Source: Dehalococcoidales bacterium (lineage in GTDB: Bacteria > Chloroflexota > Dehalococcoidia > Dehalococcoidales > RBG-16-60-22). Taken from it: 43,576 bases of DNA. The translations under genes and the position numbers were made by a program. Below the pieces are notes generated by a model. That model saw only the letters and a program-made list of their open reading frames with translations. It was not told where the DNA came from and ran no database searches. Shown piece after piece: positions 2,559-29,912 of this stretch. Positions within the stretch are counted from its first letter, which is position 1; each line of letters begins with the position of its first letter. The stretch is taken from assembly GCA_028706655.1 (NCBI GenBank), contig JAQTVW010000002.1, positions 1 through 43,576 of the forward strand, in the 5' to 3' direction.

Positions 2559-2578
2559 GATTTACGCCGGAGATTGTA

Positions 2579-3145: not shown

Positions 3146-3202
3146 GCGGCTTCTCCTTTGCCAGGACTTGGTTCTATATTCGGACATTGTAGCATAAGAA
3201 CG

Positions 3203-4180
3203 CTATTTGTGCTTACCCGGCGCTCCCTCGACCGGCACCGGCAGGGTCGCGGCAATCTCCCCCACAATATTTTCCGCCGATTGCCCGCGCAGCCCGGTTT
3301 CGGCTTTGACGATGACGCGGTGCGCCAGCACCGGCACCGCCAGTTGTTTCACATCATCGGGAAGGACGTAGTTCCTGCCTTCGGTTGCCGCGCGCGCCTG
3401 TGCCGCCTGATACAAGCCCAAAGAAGCGCGGGGACTGGCGCCCAGCTTGACACCGGGATGGCTGCGCGTCGCCTGGGTGATGGCAACCACGTAATCCCGT
3501 ATCGATGCCTCCACGTGCACCTGCCGGCACAATCTCTGCAATTCAAGCAGCTCGGCGGCGCTGATAACGCTGGTCAGGTTGTCCAGCGGGTTGTCCTGCT
3601 GGAAGCGGCGCAGAATCTCCCCTTCCTCCGCCGCCGAAGGATAGCCGAGCCGCACTTTGAGCAAGAACCGGTCGAGCTGGGCTTCGGGTAGGGGGAAGGT
3701 GCCTTCCAGTTCCACCGGGTTCTGCGTGGCGATAACCATGAAGGGGCGGGGCAGCGGAATCGTGGCGACATCCACGGTGACCTGCCGCTCCTGCATACTT
3801 TCCAGCAGGCACGATTGCGTGCGCGGCGTGGCGCGGTTGATTTCATCCGCCAGCACGATATTCGCCATGATGGGGCCGGGGCGGTATTCAAACTCGGATG
3901 ACTTCTGGTTGAAGTAATAGATGCCGGTCACATCGGAAGGCAGCAGGTCCGGCGTGAACTGGATGCGTTTGAAATTGCAGCCCAGCGAATGGGCGGTCGC
4001 TTTCGCCAGCATCGTCTTGCCGATGCCGGGCACGTCCTCGATGAACAGGTGCCCCTCGCAGAGGAGCGCCACCAGCACCAGCCTGATGGTCTCCTGCTTA
4101 CCCACAATCACCTTGCCGATATTGGCGGACAGCTTTTCCGCCGCCGCCGCGATTTGTGATATATCCAGCGTGTTCTCCAT
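3203..4180 (-). CDS. MoxR-family AAA+ ATPase
   Basis: Walker A GIGKTMLAK, Walker B/sensor region VLADEINRATPRTQSCLLESMQE. AGGAGG lies 5 nt upstream of the ATG at 4180; the track ORF starts at 4195. Confidence 0.9.
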   Translation of the reverse strand: MENTLDISQIAAAAEKLSANIGKVIVGKQETIRLVLVALLCEGHLFIEDVPGIGKTMLAKATAHSLGCNFKRIQFTPDLLPSDVTGIYYFNQKSSEFEYRPGPIMANIVLADEINRATPRTQSCLLESMQERQVTVDVATIPLPRPFMVIATQNPVELEGTFPLPEAQLDRFLLKVRLGYPSAAEEGEILRRFQQDNPLDNLTSVISAAELLELQRLCRQVHVEASIRDYVVAITQATRSHPGVKLGASPRASLGLYQAAQARAATEGRNYVLPDDVKQLAVPVLAHRVIVKAETGLRGQSAENIVGEIAATLPVPVEGAPGKHK

Positions 4181-4203
4181 AGTGCCTCCTGTCATGTTCA
4201 GGT

Positions 4204-10660: not shown

Positions 10661-10784
10661 GAGACTCCTCCATCAGGAAAAAATCAGCCCTATCGTTATA
10701 GTTATAATCTAAAAGCACAGGTTTTTCAAATTTTCTCACAGCGCAGGCGCTATTAGCAACCCCCGACATGGCGGGCAGGGGTGT

Positions 10785-10812
10785 TTGCTGAAATGCGAAA
10801 GAGTAGTATACT
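10785..10812 (+). promoter_or_regulatory. candidate sigma70-type promoter
   Basis: TTGCTG (10785-10790), 16-nt spacer, TATACT (10807-10812), about 35 nt upstream of the small-ORF/HerA gene string. Confidence 0.3.
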
Positions 10813-10848
10813 CTATGGTGACAGTGAATAAAATGGTGGAGTGTGGCG

Positions 10849-11049
10849 ATGAGCGACCTGGATTATGAACGGAACACCAATGATGAAACGGCATCCCCTG
10901 GCTTGATGTGCCGGTGCCGCTGGCACGGTTATTATAGCATCAATACCGGCTGTGAAAGGTGCCGCAAAGAAGAAGTAAAACAGGCGCTGGCACAGCGCCG
11001 GCAAAGGCTGAACGGCATTTTTGACAACGTGGTCTGGCTGAAAGAGTAA
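10849..11049 (+). CDS. small four-cysteine (zinc-ribbon-like) protein, 66 aa
   Basis: MSDLDYERNTNDET..CRCRWHGYYSINTGCERCRKEE: a CxC...CxxC arrangement. GGTGGAG lies 7 nt upstream of the ATG at 10849; the track uses GTG at 10843. Confidence 0.45.
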   Translation: MSDLDYERNTNDETASPGLMCRCRWHGYYSINTGCERCRKEEVKQALAQRRQRLNGIFDNVVWLKE

Positions 11050-11066
11050 TTCCATAAGGAGGCAGT

Positions 11067-11153
11067 ATGGGGACTAAAGGCAGACATAACGTGAAGAAAG
11101 AAAAGAAATCCGTAATTGAGAAGAAGGCCGCCAAAACCGCCGCCAAGAAGTAA
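11067..11153 (+). CDS. 28-aa lysine-rich micropeptide (MGTKGRHNVKKEKKSVIEKKAAKTAAKK)
   Basis: Below the ORF-track size cutoff. A near-perfect SD, AAGGAGG, lies 5 nt upstream of the ATG at 11067; TAA at 11151-11153. Confidence 0.4.
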   Translation: MGTKGRHNVKKEKKSVIEKKAAKTAAKK

Positions 11154-11177
11154 CTCCAAAATTATAGAACATAAAGT

Positions 11178-11211
11178 TTGTCATTGTCAGGGCGTAGCCT
11201 GAAGCAATCTC
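11178..11211. repeat. degenerate half-copy of the variant-A intergenic repeat
   Basis: TTGTCATTGTCAGGGCGTAGCCTGAAGCAATCT shares TGTCATTG and GAAGCAATC with 7963-7998. A local 7-bp hairpin GTCAGGG/CCCTGAC lies at 11186-11220. Confidence 0.35.
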
Positions 11212-11289
11212 ACCCCTGACCTGTTAATCAAGGTCTGTGTGTTGTGCTCGTAATGGTCTTGTAAAACCAATCTTGAAAGGTGATTGTGG

Positions 11290-11871
11290 ATGCCTGAATT
11301 GACTGATAGAGTCGGCGAAGTGGTGGAAGCCGGGACGACTTCCTGCATCGCCCAGTGCTACGAGCTTTACGAAGCTCCGCCGCTGGGCAGCCTCGTGCGT
11401 ACCGGAGACATCTACGGCATTGTTTCCCACGCCGCCACCACCGGGCTGGAGCCGGGCAGACACCCCATCGCGCGGGGCAAAGACGCCGCCAGCGAAGAAG
11501 CCGTCTACAAGGACAATCCCCAGTTAAACAAGCTGTTCCGCAGCGAGTTCGGCGTGCTGGTAGTGGGGCACCGCAGCGGCGAAAAGATATGCCAGTACCT
11601 GCCGCCGGGAACGGCGCGGATTCATGGATTCGTCTACCGCTGTCCGGCAGAAGAAGTCAAGACGTTCAGCCGCTCCTTAAACTTTCTCAACATGATGATT
11701 AACGCCGAGCTGCCGGTCTCCGCCGAAGAACTGATTGCCGCCGCACTGCGCGGGATGAGCGCGGTGCAGGACGACCCGCATCAATTCCTCATCGCCGCCG
11801 GTAAAGAACTGGCGGTCCTGCTGAGCGGGCAGTACCCGCGCCTGCGGGCTATCGCGGGGAGGCTGTCATGA
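11290..11871 (+). CDS. hypothetical protein whose N-terminus resembles a HerA-type HAS-barrel (no ATPase domain)
   Basis: RVGEVVEAGTTSCIAQCYELYEAPPLGSLVRTGDIYGIVSHA parallels the N-terminus of the next gene (RLGMVVGGSLDKGVDIRLD..MAVGRYVTIEGQRRRFLGMITDV). The SD-like AAAGGTGA lies 7 nt upstream. The stop overlaps the next start (ATGA at 11868-11871). Confidence 0.7.
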   Translation: MPELTDRVGEVVEAGTTSCIAQCYELYEAPPLGSLVRTGDIYGIVSHAATTGLEPGRHPIARGKDAASEEAVYKDNPQLNKLFRSEFGVLVVGHRSGEKICQYLPPGTARIHGFVYRCPAEEVKTFSRSLNFLNMMINAELPVSAEELIAAALRGMSAVQDDPHQFLIAAGKELAVLLSGQYPRLRAIAGRLS

Positions 11872-13469
11872 CGGAACGACTGGGCATGGTGGTCGGCGGC
11901 TCGCTGGACAAGGGCGTCGATATCCGGCTGGACAGCGCTATCTCCGTTGAAGACATGGCGGTAGGGCGCTACGTTACTATCGAAGGGCAGCGCCGCCGCT
12001 TCCTCGGCATGATTACCGATGTTTTACTGGGCGTTACCGACCAGCAGATGACACTCACGCCGCCCGGCGCCGGTGAATCTTTCCTCACCGAGGTGCTCAC
12101 CGGCACAGGGACTTACGGCACGATTCATGTTACCCCTTACCTGACCATCGGCGGGAGCGCCGCCAATGTCCTCGGGGAAGGCGAGCCGGTCAAGACCGTG
12201 CCGAGCCATTTTGCACCGGTCAACCTCGCCGCCGAGGCGGATATGGAACTCGTCTTCGGCAAAGAAGACCAGAAGCGGTTCTGGATTGGCAATCCGCTGG
12301 ACATGGAGACGCGCCTCTGCCTGAACCTTGAGGAATACGTCAAGCGCTCCAACGGCATCTTCGGCAAGAGCGGCACGGGCAAGACCTTCCTCACGCGCAT
12401 CCTGCTGGTCGGCATGCTGCAAAAGAGCCGCGCCGTGAACCTGATTTTCGATATGCACAACGAGTATGGCTGGGCGGGCACCAGCGAGGGCGGCAAGTCC
12501 GTCAAAGGCTTGAAGCAACTGTTCCCCTCGAAGGTTGCCGTCTTTACCCTGGACGAGGAAAACTCGCGCCACCGCGGCGTCAGCACCGATTTCGTCGTCC
12601 GCATCGGCTACGATGAGATTGAGCCGGAAGATATCGCCCTGCTGCGCCAGACCCTGAACCTCACCGAGCTTGCCGCCGAAGCGGTGTACAGCCTGCGCCG
12701 CCACTTCGGGCGCAACTGGCTCCAGGCGTCGCTGGAGATGAAGGATGAAGAGTCCGCTGATATGCTGGAGCACCTCAATATCCACGAAAGCAGCTTCCAG
12801 AGCCTGCGGCGCGGCTTGCAGACCATTACCCGTCTGCCTTTCGTGCAGCCCAAGGCGCAGGAAAACATCGTCAGCCGAATTCTCGCCTACCTCGACCAGG
12901 GCATGAATGTAGTGCTGGAGTTCGGCAGATACCGCGATATTACCGCCTACATCCTTGTCGCCAATATGCTCTCGCGGCGCATCTACGCCCAGTACCAGGA
13001 ACGCACCGAGAAAGCCCTCTCGGATGAGAAAATCGCCAAGCCGGTGCCGCTGGTCATCACCATCGAGGAAGCACATAAGTTCCTCAACCCGGAAGTGGCG
13101 GGCAAGACCATCTTCGGCACCATCGCCCGTGAAATGCGCAAATACAACGTCAGCCTGCTCATCATCGACCAGCGCCCCAGCGGCATCGATGAAGAGGTGC
13201 TATCGCAAATCGGCACCAAGATAACCTATCTGCTGGACAATGAGCGTGACGTGGACAGCGTCCTTTCCGGTGTCTCCGGTAAAACGGCTCTGAAATCGGT
13301 ACTGGCGCGCCTCGCGCCCCGGCAGCAAGCCCTTATTTTCGGACATGCGGTGCCGATGCCGGTCGCCTTCCAGCCGCGGGAATACGGCTCGGCGCAATCA
13401 TACAAAGAATTCTCTGAAGGACGGGCGGAAGCTCCCGCTCCGAAAGACATCGAAGATTTATTTAAATAA
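11868..13469 (+). CDS. HerA/FtsK-superfamily (DUF87-type) ATPase
   Basis: N-terminal barrel, Walker A GKSGTGKT, Walker B-type VPLVITIEEAHKF, and a second acidic patch SLLIIDQRPSGID. Confidence 0.85.
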   Translation: MTERLGMVVGGSLDKGVDIRLDSAISVEDMAVGRYVTIEGQRRRFLGMITDVLLGVTDQQMTLTPPGAGESFLTEVLTGTGTYGTIHVTPYLTIGGSAANVLGEGEPVKTVPSHFAPVNLAAEADMELVFGKEDQKRFWIGNPLDMETRLCLNLEEYVKRSNGIFGKSGTGKTFLTRILLVGMLQKSRAVNLIFDMHNEYGWAGTSEGGKSVKGLKQLFPSKVAVFTLDEENSRHRGVSTDFVVRIGYDEIEPEDIALLRQTLNLTELAAEAVYSLRRHFGRNWLQASLEMKDEESADMLEHLNIHESSFQSLRRGLQTITRLPFVQPKAQENIVSRILAYLDQGMNVVLEFGRYRDITAYILVANMLSRRIYAQYQERTEKALSDEKIAKPVPLVITIEEAHKFLNPEVAGKTIFGTIAREMRKYNVSLLIIDQRPSGIDEEVLSQIGTKITYLLDNERDVDSVLSGVSGKTALKSVLARLAPRQQALIFGHAVPMPVAFQPREYGSAQSYKEFSEGRAEAPAPKDIEDLFK

Positions 13470-13496
13470 CACATCCGTAGTGTCTGAAAACCGGAG

Positions 13497-13580
13497 TTGT
13501 CACCCTGAGCGCAGCGAAGGGTCTCATCCTCGTGAAAGATAATGAGATTCTTCGGTCGTTGCGCTCCCTCAGAATGACAA
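13497..13580. repeat. palindromic intergenic repeat, variant B (GTCACCCTGAGCG..GCGAAGGG type)
   Basis: The left arm TTGTCACCCTGAGCGCAGCGAAGGGTCTC is reverse-complementary to the right arm GAGATTCTTCGGTCGTTGCGCTCCCTCAGAATGACAA. It begins 28 nt after the HerA stop. Confidence 0.7.
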
Positions 13581-13602
13581 TGCAATAAATCAAAACAGGA
13601 GT

Positions 13603-14424
13603 GTGATTTTGCGGAAGAAGGTCGGGCTGGCGCTGGGCAGCGGGGCTGCCAAGGGTATGGCGCATATCGGGGTGCTGGAAGTCTTCCAGAAAGAAGGCAT
13701 CCCGATTGATTTCATCGCCGGGACCAGCATCGGCGCGGCGATTGGCGCAATTTATGCCCACAGTCAGGACGCCACCGCTCTTAAAATGAGGGTACTGGAA
13801 CTTACGCCGAGCAAGCTCGCCCGGCTGATTGACCCGGCAATGCCCAAGAGCGGCTTTCTCAAGGGCAGAAAAATCAAGGACCTGCTGGCGTCTTTTCTCG
13901 ATGGTGCTGTCCGTTTCGGCGACCTGGCGATACCTTTCGCCTGCGTGGCGGCGGATATCGATACCGGCGAAGAAGTCATCTTCGAGCGAGGCTCTCTGCT
14001 GGAAGCCGTGCGCGCGAGCATATCCATCCCGGCGGTATTTACCGTGGCGAAAGCCCGGGGCAGAAACCTGGTGGACGGGCAACTGGTGGATCCCGTGCCG
14101 GTAGACGTGGTGCGGAAAATGGGCGCCGAATTTGTCATCGCGGTGAATGTCATTCCTGATATGCACACCAGGGTCGCGGCGGCGGACGGCAGCCCCGGCG
14201 AAAAACAGCAGGAGCCGAGACTCATGTATGTCATGATGCAGTCTCTTTACATCGCCACTTACAAGCTGGCGCGTACCGCCATGGAAGGCGCCGATGTCAT
14301 CATTGAGCCGCCGGTGGCAGGCATCGGTTCCGGCGATTTTCACCGCGCTGAAGAGTGCATTTTACAGGGAGAGCTTGCCGCCGAAGATGCTGTCATAGAG
14401 ATAAAGCGGCGACTCGGTCTGTAA
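13603..14424 (+). CDS. patatin-like phospholipase
   Basis: GSGAAKG oxyanion motif, GTSIG serine nucleophile, VDGQLVDPVP Asp dyad motif. GTG start with AGGAG upstream. Confidence 0.9.
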   Translation: MILRKKVGLALGSGAAKGMAHIGVLEVFQKEGIPIDFIAGTSIGAAIGAIYAHSQDATALKMRVLELTPSKLARLIDPAMPKSGFLKGRKIKDLLASFLDGAVRFGDLAIPFACVAADIDTGEEVIFERGSLLEAVRASISIPAVFTVAKARGRNLVDGQLVDPVPVDVVRKMGAEFVIAVNVIPDMHTRVAAADGSPGEKQQEPRLMYVMMQSLYIATYKLARTAMEGADVIIEPPVAGIGSGDFHRAEECILQGELAAEDAVIEIKRRLGL

Positions 14425-15069
14425 ATGATGCACTGGTTCTATTACGGCGGCAGGGTGATATCGTGGACAGCGCTTACGCTATTCGCACGCTGGCAGGTCA
14501 CCGGGCGGGAAAACGTCCCGAAAAAAGGTCCGCTGCTTATCGTCGCCAACCATCTTAATCTCTCCGACCCCTCCATTGTGGCAATGAGCGTGGGTCGCCG
14601 GATGGTCTTCATGGCTAAGGACGAGCTTTTCCGCAAGCCGTTCCCCCGCTATTTCATCCGCGGCTTCGGGGCGTTCCCGGTGCGGCGGGGCGCGCTCAAC
14701 CGGGAGGCGTTCAAAGAGGCGGAAAACTGGCTGAATAAAGATGTCGCCCTGGTCATGTTCCCCGAAGGGGGACGCAGCCGCGATACCAAGTTGATGACAC
14801 CATTTCCCGGCTCGGTGATGATTGCCACGAAGCTGAATGTACCGATACTGCCGGTGGGCATCGCGGGTTCGGAAAGTGTAGGCGGCAGATTCTGGTGGTT
14901 GAAGCGGCCCCGCATCACCGTAAAAATCGGCAAGCCTTTCTCTTTGCCGCCCGTTTATGGTAAGTTAGAAAAAGAGGAGCGCGCCAGGCTGGCGGATTAT
15001 ATCATGGAGCACATCGCGGCTCTATTACCGCGCAAATACCGGGGCGAATATGGCAAACATCGAAATTGA
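14425..15069 (+). CDS. plsC: 1-acyl-sn-glycerol-3-phosphate acyltransferase
   Basis: HX4D motif NHLNLSD and FPEGGRS motif. The ATG directly follows the patatin TAA. Confidence 0.88.
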   Translation: MMHWFYYGGRVISWTALTLFARWQVTGRENVPKKGPLLIVANHLNLSDPSIVAMSVGRRMVFMAKDELFRKPFPRYFIRGFGAFPVRRGALNREAFKEAENWLNKDVALVMFPEGGRSRDTKLMTPFPGSVMIATKLNVPILPVGIAGSESVGGRFWWLKRPRITVKIGKPFSLPPVYGKLEKEERARLADYIMEHIAALLPRKYRGEYGKHRN

Positions 15070-15898
15070 AAAAGCGGGCAAGACCGGATTCTGTTTCGGG
15101 GTAAGGCGCGCCATCAACACTCTGGAGAAAGTTGCCCGCGAACGCGGCGGGGTGGAGACGCTGGGTGCGGTGGTGCACAATGAACAGGTGCTGCAAAAGC
15201 TTGCCGAACTCGGCGTGCGGGTTGCCGGCGGTATGGCGGATATCATGGGCGATGCCGTCGTCACCAGTTCGCACGGGGTAAGCCCCCAGGTGGAAGAGGA
15301 ACTGCACGCCCGGGGCATCACCGTCATCAGTACCACCTGCCCTTTCGTCAAACGCGCCCAGATGGCGGCGCGGCGGTTGTCCGAAGCGGGCTTTTTCATC
15401 ATCGTCTATGGCGATGCGGAACATCCCGAAGTCAAAGGTATTCTGGGCTGGGCGAAAGGCAAGGGCATCGCCACATTAGGAGCGCAGGCGATTACGGCGC
15501 TCGACCCGTTGCCGCGCCACATCGGTATTCTTTCCCAGACCACGCAAATTCCTGCCCAGTTCGTTGCCTTCGTCAAACAGGTCATTGACCGTGCCCTGAC
15601 TAAAGATTCGGAAATCCGCATCATCGATACCATTTGCCACGATATCCGGGAGCGGCAGACCGCCGCGCTGGAACTTGCTAAGAGGGTCGACCTGATGCTG
15701 GTCATCGGCGGGCGGCACAGCGCCAATACCCGCCACCTCGCCGAACTCTGCGCCACGGCGACGCGTACCCACCAGATTGAGACTGCCGCCGAAATAAAGC
15801 CGTCCTGGCTGAAGAATTGCCGGAGCATCGGCGTTACCGGCGGCGCTTCCACTGCCGAAGAAACGGTGGCAGAGGTCATGGAAAGACTCTCGGATTGA
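15050..15898 (+). CDS. ispH: 4-hydroxy-3-methylbut-2-enyl diphosphate reductase
   Basis: Three cluster cysteines in GFCFGVRRAI, TTCPFVKR and TICHDIRERQ. Overlaps the plsC end by 20 nt. Confidence 0.93.
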   Translation: MANIEIEKAGKTGFCFGVRRAINTLEKVARERGGVETLGAVVHNEQVLQKLAELGVRVAGGMADIMGDAVVTSSHGVSPQVEEELHARGITVISTTCPFVKRAQMAARRLSEAGFFIIVYGDAEHPEVKGILGWAKGKGIATLGAQAITALDPLPRHIGILSQTTQIPAQFVAFVKQVIDRALTKDSEIRIIDTICHDIRERQTAALELAKRVDLMLVIGGRHSANTRHLAELCATATRTHQIETAAEIKPSWLKNCRSIGVTGGASTAEETVAEVMERLSD

Positions 15899-20440: not shown

Positions 20441-20911
20441 TTACATCGTGCGGCGCGGGCGGTACTGGATGGCTTCCGCCACGTGGTTCGCCTTTATTAT
20501 ATCAGAGCCTTCCAAATCGGCAATAGTGCGTGCCAGCTTGAGGATGCGGTGGAAAGCACGTGCTGAAAGATAAAGCTGTTTCATGGCGGCTTTGAGCAGA
20601 CTCTGGGCGCTGTCCTCTACCGGGCAGAACTCGCGGATTTCCGCCGGCGTCATCTCGGCATTGCAAGTCTGGCGGCTGCCCCGGAAACGCGCGCTCTGGC
20701 GGGAACGCGCCGCCGTGACCCGCGCCTGTACCGCCGCCGAAGATTCGCCGCGCCGGCTGTCCGCCAGCTTGTCATAGTCCACCCGCGGCACTTCTACGAA
20801 AATGTCCACGCGGTCGAGGAAAGGTCCGCTGATGCGTCGCTGGTAGCGGGATATCAGCCCGGGCGGGCAGGTGCATTGCCGGACGGGGTCGCCGTAATAG
20901 CCGCACGGACA
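20441..20911 (-). pseudogene. comM: 3' fragment of comM/yifB (Mg-chelatase-like AAA+), last ~156 codons
   Basis: CPCGYYGDPVRQCTCPPGLISRYQRRISGPFLDRVDIFVEVPRV...ARAFHRILKLARTIADLEGS. The upstream in-frame residues (to 21025) are AT-rich island sequence. Confidence 0.85.
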
Positions 20912-22499
20912 TACGTGCGGAACACAATTGATGATTTTCAGCTTCATTTTCAATGTTATTATAGGGTAGGGTATTATTTTCGTCAAAAGCAAAGACGCAC
21001 CTGATAGCGGGATTCCCCTCATCATCTTTCCCTACTCTGACTTCCAATAACAGGTTTTCTATTACCGCTCGTTTAGTTTCAGGTGTAGCGTATTGAATGC
21101 TTTTATTGAGCTTGCCAAGAATAAACCCGATGTTTTCAAGTCGTTTCCTATATGCTTTTTCATTAGCTTGAGCATCGGTTAACGCACTTATATGTTTCTT
21201 TATTATTTCTCTTGAATGGACAATCTCCTCTAACTCCGAGTCCAATGCTTCTTTTGAAAATTGACCTTTAGGGTCAGCGTATAGACGAAGTAACCTCTTC
21301 TCAGACTCAATCAACTCTTCTAATCTTTTTTCAGCATCATCTATTTGTGCTCTATAATCATCATCGTTAGTTAATTCCAAACGAGTTTCAATTGCCATTC
21401 TTACAGTTTCAGGATTTTTAACGAAGTTTGTAATCTTTTCCCATACCCAATCTTCAAGGAGCTTCGCAGGTACGCTTGGGGAATCGCAAGCTTCCGATAA
21501 TAAGTTGCCCCTGTTACCATTTCTATTGCACCGATAGTATTGAAGCTCGCCATTTCTCGTTGAATGCGAACAATAGCCAGAATAAGAGTGTCCGCATATT
21601 TCACATTTCACGAGTCCTCTTAAAAGGTATAATCTTTTTGAATTTCTGTCTGCCCAAAGACAATGGTCTTTTAGATTATTTCGTGCTTTATTGAAAGTGT
21701 CCGAATCTACAATAGATGGACAGGTTGTTATGACTGGTGAATTAAGTCTTTTCTTACTTCTTTTTCCATAGACCCATTCACCTTTGTATGTTGAATTGCG
21801 AAGCATATTATAAACCCGTGCGGGACGCCATAACCTCGCTGTAGCTTTACCCCTGATTCCTCTTCCGTCTTTGCTATAACGTGTCGGTATTCCTAACGCA
21901 TTTAACTGTGGTGCTATGGAGTAACAGGTCATACCTTTTTCATTGACCCAATAGTATAGCTGACGGACTATTTTAGCTTCCTCTTCATTTATCTCTAGTT
22001 TTTTTGTGTCTGGATTTAATTGGTAACCGTACGGAATGATACCACCAGAGTATTGTCCGCTCTGAATTGCTTTTCTCATACCGTCTCGGCTTCTTTCCAT
22101 AAAAGTGTTTCTTTCCCATTCAGCGAAGGTGGAAGCCATTCCCAAATAAGCTTTACCCATTGCGGTAGTGGTATCAAAGGATTCGGTTACGGAAGCGAAT
22201 TGAATACCTAAATCTTCGAATTCAGCTATGGTATTATACATATGTCGGTTAGACCTAAAAAGTCTATCCAGCTTATAAACCAAGATAGCATCAAACAGTT
22301 TTGCTCTAGCATCATCCATCATTTTGGTTAAAGCGGGTCTTTTAAGAGTCGTACCAGAATACCCAGCATCAACATACTCTTCAACAATTGGGTATTCCTT
22401 ATCCGAGCAATATTTACGCAATCTCTCCACCTGATTTCCAATGGAGAAATTCTGAGCTTGCTCTTCAGTTGATACTCTTGCGTAAATAGCTGCTTTCAT
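20772..22499 (-). CDS. large serine recombinase (integrase); ORF reads through the left junction into host DNA
   Basis: N-terminal resolvase catalytic domain AAIYARVSTEEQ (Ser nucleophile), YKLDRLFRS. Recombinase domain YGYQL...; zinc-ribbon cysteines CEICGHSYSG...YYRC; coiled-coil region. Residues beyond ~533 are encoded by comM DNA in another frame. Confidence 0.9.
   Translation of the reverse strand: MKAAIYARVSTEEQAQNFSIGNQVERLRKYCSDKEYPIVEEYVDAGYSGTTLKRPALTKMMDDARAKLFDAILVYKLDRLFRSNRHMYNTIAEFEDLGIQFASVTESFDTTTAMGKAYLGMASTFAEWERNTFMERSRDGMRKAIQSGQYSGGIIPYGYQLNPDTKKLEINEEEAKIVRQLYYWVNEKGMTCYSIAPQLNALGIPTRYSKDGRGIRGKATARLWRPARVYNMLRNSTYKGEWVYGKRSKKRLNSPVITTCPSIVDSDTFNKARNNLKDHCLWADRNSKRLYLLRGLVKCEICGHSYSGYCSHSTRNGELQYYRCNRNGNRGNLLSEACDSPSVPAKLLEDWVWEKITNFVKNPETVRMAIETRLELTNDDDYRAQIDDAEKRLEELIESEKRLLRLYADPKGQFSKEALDSELEEIVHSREIIKKHISALTDAQANEKAYRKRLENIGFILGKLNKSIQYATPETKRAVIENLLLEVRVGKDDEGNPAIRCVFAFDENNTLPYNNIENEAENHQLCSARMSVRLLRRPRPAMHLPARADIPLPATHQRTFPRPRGHFRRSAAGGL
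20903..20911. repeat. left copy of the 9-bp att core GCACGGACA
   Basis: Identical 9-mer at 28084-28092. It sits exactly where ComM similarity and GC-rich composition end. Confidence 0.8.
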
Positions 22500-22551
22500 T
22501 TTGAATCACTAGCCTCAAGCCAAGGCAGCCTACCATAGAATCAGGCACGAG

Positions 22552-22722
22552 TCAACGCCCATTAGCTTTATTCTCCTCTGAATTTTCAAAGCTGGACATT
22601 AGTATCTTAAATACCCTATCTAACCGCTCCCCAGCATCAGGCACTTGGACATATTCCACCTTGACAACTTTCAAGGTGTTGATTCGCTTTCTCCTTTTCG
22701 TTACTTTTGTTTCTGTAGTCAT
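22552..22722 (-). CDS. possible 56-aa ORF upstream of the recombinase (MTTETKVTKRRKRINTLKVVKVEYVQVPDAGERLDRVFKILMSSFENSEENKANGR)
   Basis: Hand-translated and below the track cutoff. No clear SD. Its position suits an accessory or directionality factor, but the call rests only on the open frame. Confidence 0.25.
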   Translation of the reverse strand: MTTETKVTKRRKRINTLKVVKVEYVQVPDAGERLDRVFKILMSSFENSEENKANGR

Positions 22723-22757
22723 TATTATTTGCCCAAGTGCCTTCTTAATAAAATTGT

Positions 22758-23120
22758 CTAGTCCTGATAACCTATAATCCGAACTTGTATACCAAACTGG
22801 GTGAAGAAAGCCTTACCGCCGACTTTCTCAAGATTCTTTTCGTAGCTACAAACTAATATCTTTTGGACTGATGGGGGATACTGCAAGAGATTACGCATAT
22901 ACCTGTCTGCTTTCCCTTGCTGAATGTAAAACTCTGGTTTCTTATAATTAGTGGATTCATAGACCCTGATAAGTTCATTCCCACGATAAACCAGAATATC
23001 CGCACCGTCAGAATACATACCAGTAGACTCTGCTCTGTTTCCCTGCTTACGTTCCCACTCCTTTATCTTTTCTACCCTACGTTGTCCGATATTCCAGCTA
23101 TCAAGCTTTCTCTTGACCAT
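22758..23120 (-). CDS. hypothetical 120-aa protein (weak PD-(D/E)xK-like pattern)
   Basis: AAGGAG lies 9 nt upstream of the ATG at 23120. The segment GADILVYRGNELIRVYESTNYKK loosely resembles a nuclease-fold beta-hairpin. No firm family match by eye. Confidence 0.7.
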   Translation of the reverse strand: MVKRKLDSWNIGQRRVEKIKEWERKQGNRAESTGMYSDGADILVYRGNELIRVYESTNYKKPEFYIQQGKADRYMRNLLQYPPSVQKILVCSYEKNLEKVGGKAFFTQFGIQVRIIGYQD

Positions 23121-23359
23121 ACGTTTATTCTCCTTTCCTGTGGGGGGATTGATTATTCTATCCTTATCACAGGACTCATTATTTTTGCCTTATCTACAAT
23201 GGACTGAATAGCAGGATAACCAGCTACTAACCATTGTTGCTAGACGTACCTTCTACGTGTTACTAACCATATAAACCATCGGTTAGTAAACAAGAGCAGT
23301 TTGGAGCTAGTCTAGCTCTGAGCGTCCTCTAACCAGACTAGCTCCGCACGCTCACCAGA

Positions 23360-23530
23360 CTATGATTTGGGTTCGCTGGTATCAGTGTTAGGAGTGGTCT
23401 CTTTCTTCCGAGGGGTACGACCAGCAGGATATACCCTAAGCTCTATTCTGGTCTTACCACTTGAAGACAGTCTGATTAGCTCAGTCCCCTTTTTGCTCTC
23501 AACTTTGGGTGAGCCATTTTTCCTTGACAT
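23360..23530 (-). CDS. hypothetical basic 56-aa protein
   Basis: AGGAGG lies 7 nt upstream of the ATG at 23530 (the track ORF starts 7 codons earlier). MSRKNGSPKVESKKGTELIRLSSSGKTRIELRVYPAGRTPRKKE... Confidence 0.55.
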   Translation of the reverse strand: MSRKNGSPKVESKKGTELIRLSSSGKTRIELRVYPAGRTPRKKETTPNTDTSEPKS

Positions 23531-23688
23531 CGCTTGTCCTCCTTTCTCCAATACTTGGTCTAGACCTTACTGAAATTAAAACACTGTTTGAGGAAGTGCA
23601 CCAAACATTCAGCTTTGGACGTTTATAAGGAATAGAATGAGATTGATGGAATAAATGTTGAAATGGACGCTAAGAGGACTCTGTAATA

Positions 23689-24582
23689 CTAGACAGATTC
23701 GGAAATATTTGAATTATCTCTTGGGAATCCTTGACGCTTGGTTAGTCCTGATTGTCGCCACGAGTAATCAAGCTTATTTCTTACACGTTTTCTTTGGCGA
23801 TTCTTACTGTCATATAGTCTCTGATATTCTTGTCTTTCTTTTTGATGACTGTAATAGTAGCGGCTCCTGCGTTGTCTTGCCTTGATGACACTTTCCGATG
23901 GAATATCTAAACTGAAATTCTTGAGAATGTTAAAAGCATATTTAGCTTCTTTTCCTGTGATTGGGTCTTGGTTTGAAAGCACAAATAATAACTGACGTTT
24001 TGGGTCTTTCAGCTTGGTTTTTATGAATTCCTGAAGAGTTGGGGTAACTAACTTACCTTCCGAGTCAAAAGCGTATAGATTCTGGTTATATCCTGCCTTT
24101 GCCTTCATTAAACCTGTTTTCAAATACGCTAACCTGTCAGCTTGGTTTTTAGATATGGAAACCTGCCCCAAGATAGCATCGTAAAATTCCTTAGATGTTA
24201 ATTTCTTAGTGCTAAGCTCTTGGAGCTTTTTCGTCTCTATTTCATTCAATTTTTCTAAATCTTGTGTCGCAAGAAGATAACGAGCTGCCACTTCAATCCC
24301 TTGCTCATAATAGTCACTACGTGTGAATTTACCATCAGGAAGGAACGCTTTGTCCCAATACATCTGAGATTTCATTTCAGCTTTGTAATTGTTATCCCGT
24401 ATGTCAATAGCTCTATAACTATCGGAAAGAATCAGATAATAGAGTGGGTAACGTGGTCTAAGTCTAAGCAGACGCCTTGACAATACAATTGCATCTTCAA
24501 AGCGTTTTTTATTCCATAGAAAATCTATCGCTTGCTTGACTAATTCTGCCTCAGTATTTTTCTTATTACGTTGGTTTTTCAT
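23689..24582 (-). CDS. hypothetical 297-aa protein with an Arg/Lys-rich C-terminal tail
   Basis: Long ORF with island-typical AT-rich codon usage. N-terminal helical repeat-like segment (AIDFLWNKKRFEDAIVLSRRLLRLRP); C-terminal RQRRSRYYYSHQKERQEYQRLYDSKNRQRKRVRNK. No recognisable catalytic motif. Confidence 0.7.
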   Translation of the reverse strand: MKNQRNKKNTEAELVKQAIDFLWNKKRFEDAIVLSRRLLRLRPRYPLYYLILSDSYRAIDIRDNNYKAEMKSQMYWDKAFLPDGKFTRSDYYEQGIEVAARYLLATQDLEKLNEIETKKLQELSTKKLTSKEFYDAILGQVSISKNQADRLAYLKTGLMKAKAGYNQNLYAFDSEGKLVTPTLQEFIKTKLKDPKRQLLFVLSNQDPITGKEAKYAFNILKNFSLDIPSESVIKARQRRSRYYYSHQKERQEYQRLYDSKNRQRKRVRNKLDYSWRQSGLTKRQGFPRDNSNISESV

Positions 24583-24687
24583 AAAGCATAATTCACCAAG
24601 AAATGTGCTCCTGCAATTTTAACACCAAAATACTTATCATTGCATAGTAACGAAGCGAAGTAATAAATTATCCCCCCCGCCCTCTTC

Positions 24688-24722
24688 AATAAAAAAGACG
24701 CCCGCCCTTTCAGGGTGGCGTC
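24688..24722 (-). terminator. Rho-independent terminator downstream of the RM gene
   Basis: On the minus strand: GACGCCACCC-TGAAA-GGGCGGGCGTC followed by TTTTTTATT. A GC-rich hairpin in otherwise AT-rich DNA. Confidence 0.6.
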
Positions 24723-24970
24723 GTTGTGTTAGGTACGAATTTATTGAAGTAAAATCAGAAATTCAATTTAGCTTCGCAAATAAAGTGAAAATACGGCAAT
24801 TTATCCCTTTTTATTATACGGTTAGCTTTGGTAAATTATGCCGAAATGGGGCAGAAATAAGGTTTATTTTCTCTTTTTGATGGTGGCAGGAGCTTGTTTT
24901 GAAGCTAAATTCCCAACTGGCACGGGCATTTCTTGCCAAATTTCAAACTATTTTTCAAACGTTAGACCCG

Positions 24971-27628
24971 TTAAAATTCGGTTTTCTCTATCTTGTATAA
25001 ACTAAAGACAATATCATCTATTTGTTGAGTAACGCCTGCTATACTTCCCTTTAAAGCAAGCTCTTGGTCTGGGGCACAACCATTAAGTTTCTGGTTATAC
25101 TGTAATAAACTATCAACCAGATTCCCTATCTTAGACTGTATCTCTTCGGTGCAAGGTTTAAGTGGAAGTTGCTCTAGATAACCTTTTGATACATTGACCG
25201 TCAAATCCGCCTTATTAGTGAAACGATTTCTGAAATAGTAGTTCATCAAGTTTGAGTTTAACAGGGCGAGCACGTACCTAGCATCGAAACTCTTATCCTC
25301 AGTTTTCAGGATTATGTTATTGATGGAAGCAAAAGTGTAATATTGGCTTCGGTCTAAAGTAGCAACAATAGGGTCTAAGCCTCCGCTTATCCTACGAACA
25401 AGGATTTTTTCCTTAGCAAGGAAAATGCTTTCAGGTCTAGCCCTGTGTAATACCTTCCTGTCATAGAGAATGAACTTTTTACTTGGTATGATTCGATACC
25501 TATCAATATCCTTACCTTCAATGAATTTCTTATACTCTTCACCCAGTTTTTTATCGGTAATGTAATTTGCCTTACCTTTGGGAGTGACGATACCCTCAAT
25601 TATTTCTTCGCATATTTTACCGAGAAGTGTACATCCCTCTTCTATCTTAGATAACAATTTATCTGTTTTTTCATCCACAAATATGTTGAATGCTTTTAGC
25701 GGACTAGTGTCAAAATCAAGCTGAGGTAATTCGTTTACAATGAATTTGTTTGAAGTCAAATCTTGTATATCCGATATGACCTTCACCTTGTTAGATTCCC
25801 GTACCTTCTTATCCGCTTCTTTCCTGAGAATGATTACTATCGTTTCGGCTGTTACTTTCTCGAATTGACCTTTCCCTAAATCTACAATTTGTTCGATAGC
25901 ACAGTTATTCAATATAAAATTACGAAGAGGCTCATAGGTGCTTACTCTTAAAAGAGTGTTTGGAACGATGAAGCCAAGCTTCCCACCATCTGATAATCTT
26001 TCAATACCAGCTTCTATGAATAAAGCGAATGTGTTTACCTTTCCGAGTGCTGACTGATAATGTTTTTTGTAGTATCCTTTTTCTAATTCAGAAATAGCCA
26101 TACTACGAGTAAAAATATACGGTGGATTAGAAACAATTATATCGAAAGGTCTATTCTTTAGAAGCTTACTTAGAGAGACTTTTGGTGTATTGGTATCTTC
26201 TACTGAAGATAATGGATGCTCTGTTTCATAGATGTCCAAATCAAAGGTCAACTCAAGCTTTTCAAGGCTGTTACCTCCAACCACATTGAGCTTACTCGTA
26301 GGGTGGTCTAAGTCCTTTAATAGTAAGTTCATTACTGTCAACTGCGTTGCGAAGGGATTAATATCTATACCGAATAGATTCTTTTCTAATATCTTAGCGT
26401 GTATAAGTCCTTCTTCCCATCCCTCAGCAGTATATAGTTTTCGTAATCTATCGTAAGCCTTTATTAAAAAGCCACCAGAACCACAAGCTGGGTCAAGTAT
26501 CTTCTTATCAGGGGTAATATTTACTTCATTCAGAATATAATTGACTAGTAAGTCAGGTGTATAGAACTGCCCCAGTCTCTTTCGCTCTTCCCTAGATATG
26601 TGCCGCTCATAAGCATTACCAAGCACGTCCTTGCTTATTTTGGAAAAATCGTGCTCACCTAGCTTATCAAGTACGAAGTCAATGGTATCGGAATTCCAGT
26701 CAATATCCTCGAAATTAATTGAGTCAAATAAAGGCGATTTATATAGACCCTCAAAACGCTCACCTATTTCGTTAAATGCTATGCTCAGTATGTTACTCGG
26801 CTTCTCGACCATCTGACGCCATTTTGTTATTGCATCCTTAGAGAGCTTCGATTTGACGTGTCCCTTGTCTTCACAAATTCTGAGGAATAGAACTCGATTG
26901 ATTAATGTATAAGCACCTTCTCTGCATAGCTTGTCTATTAACTCAGGGTCAGAAACATCCATCTTTACGTCGGCTGCCCAAACATCAATTATTTGCTTGA
27001 ATTCAAGGTCAGTCTGATAACGAGCTTTGAACTGAGAGAGAAGGTCACTAAATAATTTTTCTCGACACTTGGCTAGGTCATCTATGAGAGTCTTAGCGGT
27101 AATGTTTTCTCTTAGGCTTTCGGCTTGTTCGCTGAGTTTTTTCGCTTCCTGAAGATGCTCCTTGCTAATAAGTTCTGACAACGCACTATAGAACTCAGGT
27201 AAATTTTTGAGCGAAGTCTCAAATAACAATCTGTCTTTAGGATTTGCAATCCCAGCCACGAAGGATTTGTAAATTCTAATCTCTAATCCATTAGTGAGCA
27301 TTACCCACTCAATACCTTTAAGGTAGGCGTAATTAAGCCCTTGATTCACGTGGTTATCTAGCTTCTCATCTAAATCTTTTGTTTCTATAAGAAGCTTTGG
27401 TTTATTATCGAAAATCAGAGCTATATCAGCCTTCTTATTCTCTACGTGATGTTCAAAGTCCATATCTTGCTGAGTGCTGTAACCAAGTAAGTTCAGCAAA
27501 GGAATGACTATCTTAATCTTGACGTTTTCCTCACAGGCACCTTTGGCTTTGCGGACGTATTTATCTACATCAAGATTAGCCAGCGATTTAATTTCTTTCT
27601 GTGCCTGTTTCAATAGATTATTCCTCAA
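24971..27628 (-). CDS. type IIG restriction-modification enzyme (fused PD-(D/E)xK nuclease, N6-adenine methyltransferase and target-recognition domain)
   Basis: N-terminal nuclease-like KADIALIFDNKPKLLIETKDL (D...ExK). Methyltransferase motifs GQFYTPDLLV, ILDPACGSGGFL, LFGIDINPFA, IVSNPPYIF. Long C-terminal TRD-like region. TTG start with no SD. Confidence 0.85.
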   Translation of the reverse strand: MRNNLLKQAQKEIKSLANLDVDKYVRKAKGACEENVKIKIVIPLLNLLGYSTQQDMDFEHHVENKKADIALIFDNKPKLLIETKDLDEKLDNHVNQGLNYAYLKGIEWVMLTNGLEIRIYKSFVAGIANPKDRLLFETSLKNLPEFYSALSELISKEHLQEAKKLSEQAESLRENITAKTLIDDLAKCREKLFSDLLSQFKARYQTDLEFKQIIDVWAADVKMDVSDPELIDKLCREGAYTLINRVLFLRICEDKGHVKSKLSKDAITKWRQMVEKPSNILSIAFNEIGERFEGLYKSPLFDSINFEDIDWNSDTIDFVLDKLGEHDFSKISKDVLGNAYERHISREERKRLGQFYTPDLLVNYILNEVNITPDKKILDPACGSGGFLIKAYDRLRKLYTAEGWEEGLIHAKILEKNLFGIDINPFATQLTVMNLLLKDLDHPTSKLNVVGGNSLEKLELTFDLDIYETEHPLSSVEDTNTPKVSLSKLLKNRPFDIIVSNPPYIFTRSMAISELEKGYYKKHYQSALGKVNTFALFIEAGIERLSDGGKLGFIVPNTLLRVSTYEPLRNFILNNCAIEQIVDLGKGQFEKVTAETIVIILRKEADKKVRESNKVKVISDIQDLTSNKFIVNELPQLDFDTSPLKAFNIFVDEKTDKLLSKIEEGCTLLGKICEEIIEGIVTPKGKANYITDKKLGEEYKKFIEGKDIDRYRIIPSKKFILYDRKVLHRARPESIFLAKEKILVRRISGGLDPIVATLDRSQYYTFASINNIILKTEDKSFDARYVLALLNSNLMNYYFRNRFTNKADLTVNVSKGYLEQLPLKPCTEEIQSKIGNLVDSLLQYNQKLNGCAPDQELALKGSIAGVTQQIDDIVFSLYKIEKTEF

Positions 27629-27649
27629 AATTGGTATTCAACTGGACAT

Positions 27650-27678
27650 ATTATACAACATTGCCTAACCCGAACAGT
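27650..27678 (-). promoter_or_regulatory. candidate promoter for the RM gene
   Basis: Perfect TATAAT on the minus strand (27655-27650), 21 nt upstream of the TTG start. The -35 is only weak (ACTGTT/TTACTG). Confidence 0.3.
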
Positions 27679-27776
27679 AACGCTCGCCGCTTGTTCTGGC
27701 AAAATTCTGAAAACTCACTTTTATTCTGGCACGCCACTAGGCACACCTACTACCCTTCAGTCGTGGGGGATTTTGA

Positions 27777-27893
27777 TTACTTCTTGTTTTTCTTATTCCT
27801 CTTACGCTCTTTGATGGATTCGTCTATATAAGCAAAGACAAAACAGACCACCACCACACAGAGGAATAGACAGATAATCTCCCCAATAGCCAT
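27777..27893 (-). CDS. 38-aa hydrophobic peptide with a polybasic tail (MAIGEIICLFLCVVVVCFVFAYIDESIKERKRNKKNKK)
   Basis: Hand-translated and below the track cutoff. One predicted TM helix plus a Lys-rich C-terminus; weak SD (GGCAGG). Confidence 0.3.
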   Translation of the reverse strand: MAIGEIICLFLCVVVVCFVFAYIDESIKERKRNKKNKK

Positions 27894-28056
27894 AGCCTGC
27901 CAAGCCTATAGCAGTGCCATTGGGAATACAAGCCGACTTTAGTAATACGCCAAGGGAAAAATTGACTTGACTAATGCTTCATTCAAGTAGAAACTAGCTC
28001 TTTGGTTACCCAAACATAAGCACCGAGTTTGCTCTTGACTTTCAACAACCCTACGC

Positions 28057-29142
28057 TCAATTCCAATTTTGTAATTGCATTCTGCACGGACAGGGGTTCA
28101 TTGCGCCGACGAGCATGAAGCTGGCGGGGAAGGTGACTCTCCCCTGGGCGCGACTGATGGTTACGGTTTTATCTTCCAGCGGCTGGCGCAGCAGTTCCAG
28201 CAGGGCGTTGCCGAATTCAGGCAGCTCATCGAGGAACAGGACGCCGCGGTGGCTGAGGCTGATTTCCCCCGGCTTAGGCCAGTGCCCGCCGCCGACCAGC
28301 CCGGCGCTGGAAATGGTGTAATGCGGGGCGCGGAAAGGGCGTTGCTGGACGAGCGGAGTATCCGCCGGCAGCAGCCCGCTGACGCTGTAAATCTTGGTCA
28401 CTTCGAGGGCTTCATCATTCGTCGGCGGGGGCAGTATCGAGGGCAGCGCCCGCGCCAGCAGGGTTTTGCCGCTGCCGGGCGGTCCGCTCATGATAAGGTT
28501 GTGCCCGCCTGCCGCCGCTACTTCCAGGGCGCGTTTGACGTGCTCCTGCCCCTTGATTTCAGCAAGGTCGGTGACCGGTGTTAATAAAGCGGCGGTATGG
28601 TGAGTGCCGTCTGACTTGTAGGCAGAGATGGTTTCCTCACCGCGGAAATGGCTGATAAGGCGGGTCAGCGAAGCGGCCGGGATGATGCGGGCGCCATCCA
28701 CCAGCGATGCCTCGCGGGCGTCTGCCTCCGGGACGATAACTTCCGGGATGCCCTGCTGGTAAGCGAGCCCCACCATCGGCAGGATGCCCGTGGTATGGCG
28801 CAGGTTGCCGTCCAGCGAAAGCTCGCCGAGGAACACGGTCCGGGAAACATCAGCGGTCAACTGTCCTGAGCTGAGCAGGATGCCCATGGCAATCGGCAAG
28901 TCATAAGCCGGGCCGGCTTTCTTGAGGTCGGCGGGTGCCAGGTTGACCACGATGCGTTTCATGGGAAAGGTGCCGCCGGAGTTGCGGATGGCGGCGCGGA
29001 CGCGCTCTTTGGCTTCCTGTACTGCGGTATCCGGCAGACCGACGATGGTAAACGAGGGCAGCCCGCTGGAAATATCCACTTCCACTTCCACAATCGCTCC
29101 GTCCAACCCGACCACGGCACAACTTCTTACCTTTGCCAGCAT
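28057..29142 (-). pseudogene. comM: 5' fragment of comM/yifB: 353 native codons plus an 8-codon island-encoded tail
   Basis: [23 protein letters not shown].., Walker [15 protein letters not shown], Walker [11 protein letters not shown]. ComM similarity ends at ..VGAMNPCPC, followed by RMQLQNWN-stop. Confidence 0.88.
28084..28092. repeat. right copy of the 9-bp att core GCACGGACA
   Basis: Identical to 20903-20911. It encodes the Cys-Pro-Cys of ...AMNPCPC on the minus strand. Confidence 0.8.
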
Positions 29143-29282: not shown

Positions 29283-29912
29283 ATGAAACTGGCACGGACT
29301 CTGGTTTTTATCCTGACCGCAATCTTGATTCTGGCCGCCAGCGTTATTCCGGCTTCAGCGGATAACCGCAGCAACGGCAAAACCACCCCGGGTATCACGG
29401 CTCAGCGTGACGATGACAGTCGCTACGAAAGACACAGGTCAGAGAGCGATCGGGATGAAAACGTAAATGAAGAAGACGAAGACGATGACAGGTACGAAGG
29501 CAGGTATGGCAGATACGAAGACGAGGATGACGACCGGCACGAAGATTGGGATGAGAGGGACGAGGAATGGGATGAGGATGGCGAAGACCGCGATGATGAC
29601 GATGACGTTGTAATCCCGTCCACACCCGCTCCTGTACCGGCACCAACACCAACGCCTGCGCCAACGCCTGCGCCTACGCCTACACCCACGCCGACACCTA
29701 TACCAACCCCGACACCCACGCTTACGCCTACGCCGACGCCCATCAGCGGACAACAGGTATTCAGCGCCAACTGCAGCAATTGTCACGGGTCGGGCGCGCC
29801 GTCAACCTCACGGACTCAGGCACAGCTCAACAGCTTTATTTCGACGCACAATACCGGCAGGAATCTTATCGCAGCGCAAATAGCGGCGCTGGCTTCCTGG
29901 TTGAAGCCGTAA
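29283..29912 (+). CDS. secreted monohaem c-type cytochrome with an acidic low-complexity region and a Pro/Thr linker
   Basis: Sec signal MKLARTLVFILTAILILAASVIPASA/D. A D/E/R-rich stretch, then (P-T/A)n, then a single CSNCH (CXXCH) at 29772-29786. GAGGAGG lies upstream. Confidence 0.75.
   Translation: MKLARTLVFILTAILILAASVIPASADNRSNGKTTPGITAQRDDDSRYERHRSESDRDENVNEEDEDDDRYEGRYGRYEDEDDDRHEDWDERDEEWDEDGEDRDDDDDVVIPSTPAPVPAPTPTPAPTPAPTPTPTPTPIPTPTPTLTPTPTPISGQQVFSANCSNCHGSGAPSTSRTQAQLNSFISTHNTGRNLIAAQIAALASWLKP
29616..29741 (+). repeat. imperfect hexanucleotide tandem repeat encoding the PT/PA linker
   Basis: Reiterated ACN-CCN/GCN-CCN units (PSTPAPVPAPTPTPAPTPAPTPTPTPTPIPTPTPTLTPTPTP). Confidence 0.8.

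Follow-up and report, generated by a model that had tools for sequence, protein, structure and literature searches.

The 43,576-nucleotide stretch analysed here (the window; contig JAQTVW010000002.1 of a Dehalococcoidales bacterium) carries a comM (yifB) gene interrupted by an AT-rich island. We interpret this island, with high confidence, as a small integrative element of neither phage nor conjugative type, which its own large serine recombinase (LSR) inserted into comM/yifB of a Chloroflexota (Dehalococcoidia-like) chromosome. The first-pass annotation, made from the letters of the window alone, had proposed a split gene with recoverable junctions, an LSR, defence-type cargo and a non-phage character, and this interpretation is supported here by gene content and by a natural empty site.

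The split gene and its junctions

The target encodes a YifB/ComM Mg-chelatase-like AAA+ ATPase, with ChlI, Mg_chelatase and Mg_chelatase_C domains and 58-91% identity to annotated YifB/ComM proteins, and the insertion lies in codons 351-353. The N-terminal fragment comprises 353 codons ending in ...VGAMNPCPC, and its open reading frame (ORF) runs 8 codons further into the island before a stop at 28057. The C-terminal fragment, with 153 codons and a stop, starts with the residues GYYGDPVRQCTC and supplies the end of the AAA+ module and the Mg_chelatase_C lid. Given the Pfam Mg_chelatase model is covered from 1 to 163 on the former and from 162 to 206 on the latter, with Mg_chelatase_C after it, no part of ComM was lost or duplicated. 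ORF coordinates and model coverage agree on the division into 353 and 153 residues that had been read from the sequence.

Both junctions carry the 9-mer GCACGGACA, at 20903-20911 and at 28084-28092, and no other copy is present on either strand of the 43.6-kb window, in keeping with the repeat originally described. The probability that two 40-bp windows centred on the composition breaks have any 9-mer in common is about 0.003, according to a simulation with matching composition. The flip between GC-rich and AT-rich DNA reported at these points was reproduced in a sliding-window computation: the guanine-plus-cytosine (GC) fraction is 0.389 within 20912-28083 versus 0.583 and 0.570 in the flanks, and the switch at each island end is confined to a single 300-bp window or step. 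Removing one copy of the core and the intervening 7,172 bp yields an uninterrupted ORF of 506 aa reading ...AMNPCPCGYYGDP..., and with one core copy counted the recomputed island length is 7,181 bp, which matches the length first given. Every substantial island ORF lies on the minus strand, as had also been noted.

The 506-codon frame predicted from the junctions has a natural counterpart. Over residues 1-506, the joined protein is 58-66% identical to intact ComM proteins encoded by many Chloroflexota genomes, and its best match in a large protein collection is P0121, an intact 506-aa ComM with 91% identity from a Dehalococcoidales metagenome-assembled genome (MAG). When the locus of P0121 (L089) is compared with the joined flanks, one ungapped 2,415-bp block of 84.1% identity extends across the junction, and the order PilT-ComM-enoyl-CoA hydratase is common to both. 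The first-pass annotation had named comparison of the joined flanks with intact ComM as a test of its reading; since this locus is collinear with them, the reading was not refuted. No same-species (near-identical) empty site was found.

Recombinase and attachment sites

The LSR predicted at the left end of the island was identified by three domains: Resolvase (PF00239, E = 3.4e-42, residues 3-149), Recombinase (PF07508, 1.8e-16, residues 172-277) and Zn_ribbon_recom (PF13408, 1.6e-13, residues 292-356). Its YARVSTEEQ motif holds the serine nucleophile, Ser10, which is invariant in a 27-sequence alignment, and the protein matches a PHROG integrase at 1.8e-127. Its nearest solved relatives are the TP901-1 integrase and SPbeta SprA, and residues from about 380 to 470 align with the coiled-coil-insertion-homologous region of other LSRs.

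Joining the island ends gives an attP that reads, in the sense of the integrase gene (int), ...CAATTGTGTTCCGCACGTA-TG-TCCGTGCAGAATGCAATTAC.... Its arms, AATTGCATTCTGCACG and CGTGCGGAACACAATT, are imperfect inverted repeats around the 6-bp centre GACATA, and the dyad centre coincides with the dinucleotide at 20910-20911. The host attB consists of the Asn-Pro-Cys-Pro-Cys-Gly codons of comM, and 9 bp are common to attP and attB. A related metagenomic site (L111) is a perfect palindrome, TTCTGCACGGA-TG-TCCGTGCAGAA. Given that the attP dyad is symmetric around TG and that the palindrome of L111 is perfect, we infer that crossover takes place at the TG (CA on the plus strand) of the Cys351 codon, at 20910-20911 and 28091-28092. 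The 9 bp is thus an att identity that restores the reading frame, and not a target-site duplication; the other 7 bp of identity would reflect the likeness of one attB and one attP half-site.

Conservation of the target site among relatives

Homologues of the recombinase reach 85% identity. In seven of the first eight loci examined (L081, L082 and L084-L088, with 35-85% identity), the ComM C-terminal fragment, from about residue 329-351 onward, lies directly downstream of the recombinase gene; L116 (58% identity) has the fragment there as well. The two closest, L081 (85%) and L082 (79%), continue from the recombinase directly into a C-terminal fragment that begins with ...CPCGY(Y/F)GDP. Recombinases of 35-85% identity lie against comM in nine loci, at about residues 343-353. 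The junction DNA reads ...CAATTGYRTTCYKCACGNA/TGYCCNTGC/GGCTAT... in L081, L082, L085 and L088, the four loci that allowed it to be located; these keep the left junction at the same position, and the crossover falls at the same TG wherever Cys-Pro-Cys-Gly-Tyr was located, i.e., in these four. The distal end of the L082 element is present in the same MAG as L095, although the two ends do not overlap.

The C-terminal tails of the recombinases tell of the same site. Most homologues end in ...S(A/S)RM(P/S)(L/V)RLLRRP..., which corresponds to comM codons in another frame. Among the 120 homologues listed, 24 match the strict out-of-frame comM motif and 4 match an antisense comM tail (...ARTG(V/I)H... 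or a close variant). Many homologues of about 35% identity end in ...(C/R)TDRGSSR..., which was read by eye as another antisense frame of the comM site.

One of the 4 antisense tails belongs to L113 (JBHLRM010000386, 4172-5856), where a 76%-identical recombinase occupies the same comM site in the opposite orientation. The ORF of this recombinase continues into the antisense strand of the ComM N-terminal half, whose last residue is 352, and the central dinucleotide in int sense is CA versus TG in the window. It is established for LSRs that an asymmetric central dinucleotide sets the polarity of insertion; inverted orientation together with an inverted dinucleotide is what this rule leads one to expect. 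The MAG is labelled Thorarchaeota, and the 77% identity of the adjoining ComM fragment to a Chloroflexota protein suggests mis-binning. Naturally paired att sites and recombinases of this kind, including L113 with its inverted dinucleotide and orientation, may be of use in recombinase engineering.

Two further loci were observed. In L114 (ERZ25039535 contig_38878, 1107-4274), two recombinase genes of the clade converge with a tail-to-tail overlap of about 100 bp, one of them being frameshifted, an arrangement that suggests two elements meeting at one hybrid att site. The 59%-identical recombinase of L083 (JBHPAI010000006, 10001-11572) ends in ...PLSVWLLWA, like an out-of-frame comM tail. No ComM fragment is detectable downstream of it, where the flanking gene encodes a LuxR/GerE-type regulator, and L083 may be a decayed or secondary site.

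An attachment site within the recombinase gene

Within the island, the recombinase ORF meets no stop codon; it continues through the left junction and terminates after 140 bp of host DNA. In the integrated form, the element encodes residues 1-529, the core covers residues 530-532, and the final 43 residues come from comM in a different frame. The recombinase ORFs of relatives likewise run on into host DNA. In the in-silico circle, 33 distal codons fuse in frame to the recombinase, which then measures 565 aa. This design, with attP inside the recombinase gene, is common to the whole comM-targeting clade.

The alternative tail is conserved. The distal arm and its peptide recur in L095 and L109 and, more distantly, in L098, L104 and L111. 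For tail codons 11-30, the ratio of nonsynonymous to synonymous polymorphism (pN/pS), computed from three sequences only, is 0.24 in the recombinase frame vs 1.30 and 1.03 in the other two. In another tail family, SVQNAI.LI.(K/R)AKL.RRWRK.G.FV.LR, pN/pS is 0.58 vs about 1.0, and its 11 copies present TAG, TGA and TAA stops at one fixed position. Given the canonical recombinase domains are all complete ahead of the junction, the integrated (575-aa) and circle (565-aa) forms are probably both catalytically competent.

We tentatively raise the possibility that an LSR gene cut by its own attP, yielding the native 565-aa protein only from the circle and a chimera when integrated, acts as a sensor of the integration state if the tail is modulatory. 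Under such a reading, the tail could affect stability, directionality or synapsis. The overlap of gene and att site, with a conserved alternative C-terminus, is a testable lead on how recombinases might sense integration.

The closest precedents that were found for this arrangement involve tyrosine recombinases. Integration-dependent immunity in mycobacteriophages involves enzymes of this class, and integration truncates the repressor. In SSV-type archaeal tyrosine integrases, attP lies inside the int gene and integration splits it (PMC8371274). As in the window, the att site of these systems lies in a coding sequence of the element and integration alters the encoded protein. However, the SSV integrase is split into two large parts, whereas the exchange here affects no more than the final 33 codons of a serine recombinase. 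A text search of the literature found no description of a serine integrase with an att site inside its own gene, which is weak evidence of absence. In the particle-derived sequence of phage WOVitA1, the recombinase ORF likewise runs about 45 codons past the homologous C-terminal position.

The best promoter-like site of the region (20986-20958, minus strand, TTGACG-17-TATAAT, 11/12 matches) lies in the last recombinase codons and is directed outward. Downstream of it, an ATG at 20947-20945, which L081 and L082 share, is in frame with the ComM C-terminal fragment (MKLKIINCVPHVCPCGYYGDP...). The site could drive a truncated ComM or downstream genes; it was not relied on, since its spacing is not conserved in relatives and the region is not enriched in such sites (20 vs 16.8 expected).

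Gene content of the island

The features of the element and of its target are presented in Table 1. Matches to PHROGs within the island are limited to integrase and methyltransferase. No phage structural, lysis, packaging, replication-initiator or conjugation genes were found among the island ORFs with Pfam and PHROGs, in line with the non-phage character first assigned to the element. Transposase domains are absent from every island ORF, no transfer function was found in the island, and neither Rfam families nor tRNAs were detected in the window or in the repeat loci described below.

Table 1. Features of the integrative element and of the comM gene that it interrupts, in window coordinates. 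No family match: none in Pfam, PHROGs, PADLOC and NCBIfam.
Feature	Position	Strand	Evidence or remark
comM/yifB C-terminal fragment, residues 354-506	20441..20902	-	Pfam Mg_chelatase and Mg_chelatase_C, E = 6.6e-35
Large serine recombinase, 575 aa as integrated	20772..22499	-	Resolvase, Recombinase, Zn_ribbon_recom; leftmost island gene
Left junction core, int-proximal att junction	20903..20911	.	9-bp identity with right junction
p56, small basic protein, conserved backbone	22552..22722	-	Directly upstream of recombinase; no family match
p120, semi-conserved	22758..23120	-	50% identity to 124-aa gene in L113; no family match
p63, short basic ORF in place of relatives' ~80-aa protein	23360..23551	-	Weak tblastn matches; no family match
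p297, conserved backbone	23689..24582	-	TPR-like helical N-terminus, basic C-terminal tail; no family match
Cargo, 885-aa single-chain Type IIG-like restriction-modification enzyme	24971..27628	-	Pfam HSDR_N_2, N6_Mtase, Eco57I, TaqI_C
Distal attP arm, 33 codons and stop	27983..28092	-	In-silico circle
Right junction core, int-distal att junction	28084..28092	.	Second GCACGGACA copy; same junction in L095
comM/yifB N-terminal fragment, residues 1-353	28084..29142	-	Pfam ChlI and Mg_chelatase, E = 1.8e-75

The 885-aa protein is best described, from its domains and motifs, as a Type IIG-like single-chain restriction-modification enzyme. It combines an N-terminal PD-(D/E)xK domain (HSDR_N_2, 31.8 bits, cut-off 25), a gamma-class N6-adenine methyltransferase and a TaqI_C target-recognition domain. 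Its PADLOC matches are MTase_II (3.8e-60) and REase_MTase_IIG (3.5e-44, over residues 62-694), and the motifs D..ETK (57-84), DPACGSG (379) and NPPY (501) are intact. Given the gene is absent from all related elements, it is cargo, and the earlier description of this cargo as defence-type holds.

The other genes belong largely to a backbone. The order p297, a gene for about 80 aa, variable genes, a gene for about 118 aa, a gene for about 55 aa and the recombinase is conserved in L085, L112 and L113. Only 13 homologues of p297 exist in about 5.8 billion protein clusters, on contigs with related backbones; its identity is 62-65% in L085 and L112, 52% in L113 and 42% in L082. No structural match to p297 was obtained at E <= 0.001, only generic TPR matches at E >= 0.08 (AlphaFold2 model, predicted local distance difference test (pLDDT) of 67), and the AlphaFold2 single-sequence model of p120, with a pLDDT of 50, is unusable. 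The relatives' proteins of about 80 aa score 21-22 bits against Pfam PC4 (E about 1e-4), under the cut-off of 25. Relatives also encode a 461-aa protein (phrog_4756), the gene for which is absent from the element of the window.

In tblastn searches, p56 adjoins the LSR in six loci (L081, L082, L085, L086/87, L112 and L113), and it is a weak candidate for a directionality factor or regulator. Its case as the cognate recombination directionality factor is weakened by L112, where p56 is 72% identical and the LSR only 29% identical: without co-variation with the recombinase, p56 is a weaker candidate for such a role.

L112 (Ga0115863_1002120, 10001-15461) has the same backbone (p297 65%, p56 72%) with this different LSR, and it is not beside comM. 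Given that the same backbone is found outside comM with a 29%-identical recombinase, the integrase module, and the target with it, appears to be exchangeable.

Proposed mechanism and alternative explanations

In the mechanism that we propose for the integrative element, strand exchange would occur at the central TG, and the identity around it would make both integration and excision scar-free, such that excision would rebuild the 506-aa ComM. The recombinase alone would suffice for integration, and excision would need a directionality factor as well. With attP placed in the final codons of the recombinase gene, integration would lead to a protein with a 43-residue host-encoded tail, and the circle would encode a 565-aa protein with the conserved element-encoded tail. 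The restriction-modification enzyme would probably benefit the host through phage defence and stabilise the element. The inactivation of comM probably shields the element from removal by transformation ("chromosomal curing", PMC4774983).

Several points weigh against an active element of this kind. In searches for an excised circle, the attP-type pattern gave 0 viral hits and 3 metagenome hits (L109-L111), none of which has an adjacent recombinase gene, although failure to find a circle does not show that the element is inactive. Nor was a directionality factor recognised, p56, p63 and p120 being without a match in the four family collections of Table 1. No complete second element was found, either from the L082 and L095 ends or in an alignment-based scan of reference genomes, which yielded only one further comM-inserted relative; hence, size and cargo are not comparable across the family. 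The benefit of disrupting comM is an extrapolation for this lineage. Finally, given that the 461-aa gene is missing and that only a 63-aa ORF occupies the position of the protein of about 80 aa, the element of the window may be a reduced, possibly non-autonomous derivative. As for episomal forms, no close relative was found, the best matches among phage and plasmid records being 29-36% identical.

The same reduction could be taken further, to an immobile remnant, i.e., a satellite or prophage fragment, formerly mobile, that has decayed, is now fixed and has kept its recombinase by chance. Such a remnant would be smaller than its relatives, as this element is, without the phrog_4756 gene; p63 does resemble a truncated backbone gene, and no circle was found. 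Against this, the recombinase ORF is full length and retains the YARVSTEEQ motif for catalysis as well as the cysteines of the zinc ribbon. The att junctions at both ends are perfect, neither the distal arm nor the tail codons are damaged, both of these are conserved, and the restriction-modification gene has all its catalytic motifs. We therefore consider a remnant unlikely.

If the island were a regulated intervening element like skin/sigK, SPbeta/spsM or the Listeria comK prophage, conditional excision (e.g., upon competence induction) would be a switch for comM. The exact restoration of comM on excision, the intact recombinase and both att sites would all suit such a switch, as would the co-orientation of the island genes with comM, since host transcription could read in. 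This co-orientation is not a conserved design, however, given the L113 relative is inserted the opposite way. The same site is used by very diverse elements, phage-like ones and ones resembling integrative and conjugative elements (ICEs) included, which fits plain parasitism. There is no sign of conditional excision, no directionality factor was found, and attP/attB variants were not recovered from near-identical genomes. A dedicated comM switch is, for these reasons, quite improbable.

Lastly, although the contig clearly comes from a metagenome and its composition changes sharply, the chance that an AT-rich fragment of another organism was misjoined into comM is negligible and this explanation is effectively refuted already, as both junctions fall on the same 9-mer with the exact reading frame restored, the same recombinase-comM junction recurs in at least 8 independent assemblies from different samples, and the distal junction is reproduced in L095.

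Comparison with known systems

Insertion of LSR elements into comM is an established phenomenon. Mg-chelatase/ComM is the most enriched LSR target, accounting for 12.4% of predicted site-specific LSRs, and competence genes are enriched among targets (Durrant et al. 2022, PMC10083194). The elements of that study resemble the one in the window in having an LSR at the element edge, an insertion inside the YifB/ComM coding sequence, and diverged recombinases that converge on one conserved site with a short att identity; they differ in that the host here belongs to Chloroflexota and that the element, at 7.2 kb, has no phage, plasmid or ICE hallmarks. The first-pass annotation had presented the element as a distinctive small non-phage cassette with defence cargo. 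In this, the architecture holds and the novelty was overstated, comM being already the commonest LSR target (PMC10083194, PMC9203015). The new aspects are the host lineage and the very compact, cargo-only design.

The sr1WO recombinase of phage WO likewise integrates into the magnesium chelatase gene of Wolbachia (PMC9203015, PMC5062602), leaving gene halves on both flanks, and the WOVitA1 recombinase is a distant homologue of the LSR studied here (28.9% identity over 95% of the query). Unlike the island, WO is a tailed phage of 40-65 kb, and WOVitA1 itself uses a non-coding attB. That comM is an island hotspot elsewhere, as the earlier annotation had stated, accords with insertions listed for several proteobacteria, where disrupted competence is argued to protect the elements from deletion by transformation (Croucher et al., PMC4774983). 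A cassette in comM fits this view of a conflict between mobile elements and natural transformation, and it shows that restriction-modification genes can be brought in by minimal cassettes, not by phages alone, with a competence gene being knocked out in the process. For an uncultivated Chloroflexota lineage, the window provides a clean case resolved in full, with attB, attP, attL, attR and an inferred crossover dinucleotide.

In skin/sigK, SPbeta/spsM and A118-type phage/comK, as in the window, a serine recombinase splits a host gene that excision restores precisely. Those elements are prophages or their remnants, and their excision is regulated developmentally or by infection through a known directionality factor. 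The island differs from them in its lack of prophage gene content and in having a restriction-modification gene as cargo.

Staphylococcal cassette chromosome (SCC) elements, moved by Ccr recombinases, are similar in being non-phage, non-conjugative cassettes with an LSR, one conserved chromosomal target gene and variable cargo. However, the best NCBIfam similarities of the recombinase, to CcrB (190.6 bits) and CcrC (158.6 bits), are far below the cut-offs of 900, insertion is in comM instead of the 3' end of rlmH (orfX), and the island is much smaller.

AbaR/Tn6022-type islands in Acinetobacter comM are Tn7-like transposons with transposition genes and target-site duplications. They disrupt the same host gene (background in PMC4774983), but the island of the window has no transposition genes and its mechanism is site-specific serine recombination. 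Readings of the island as a prophage, an SCC element or a Tn7-like element were thus ruled out on gene content.

Related sites, repeats and neighbouring genes

Three metagenomic loci, L109 (SDBT01025135, 1324-1354), L110 and L111 (Ga0209978_10075576, 86-116), contain intact attP-like palindromic sites followed by the conserved distal arm. No recombinase gene lies proximally in any of them, and the left side of L109 holds ABC-transporter and CoA-ligase genes. They could represent satellites without a recombinase, relics or secondary sites.

Two Dehalococcoidia/Chloroflexota MAGs (JABMQN01 "bin.164" and CAZWIP01) hold more than 15 copies, often at contig ends, of a dispersed unit of about 130 bp (L090-L094, L096, L097, L099-L103 and L105-L108). 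The unit contains an attR-like GGCACGAATCCC-TG-TCCGTGCAGAATGCAATT and then a conserved open frame of 28 codons with TAG, TGA or TAA at a fixed position. Copies lie between single genes, 0.5-1.6 kb apart and in the same orientation, with no recombinase nearby. The units may be repeats resembling miniature inverted-repeat transposable elements (MITEs), relic element ends or cassette boundaries.

The segment that separates pilT from comM is variable. In the window, 29283-29912 (plus strand) holds a 209-aa acidic, Pro-Thr-rich ORF with a CxxCH-like motif. In the empty-site relative (L089, 2817-4394), this segment is occupied by a different restriction-modification pair, MvaI_BcnI and N6_N4_Mtase.

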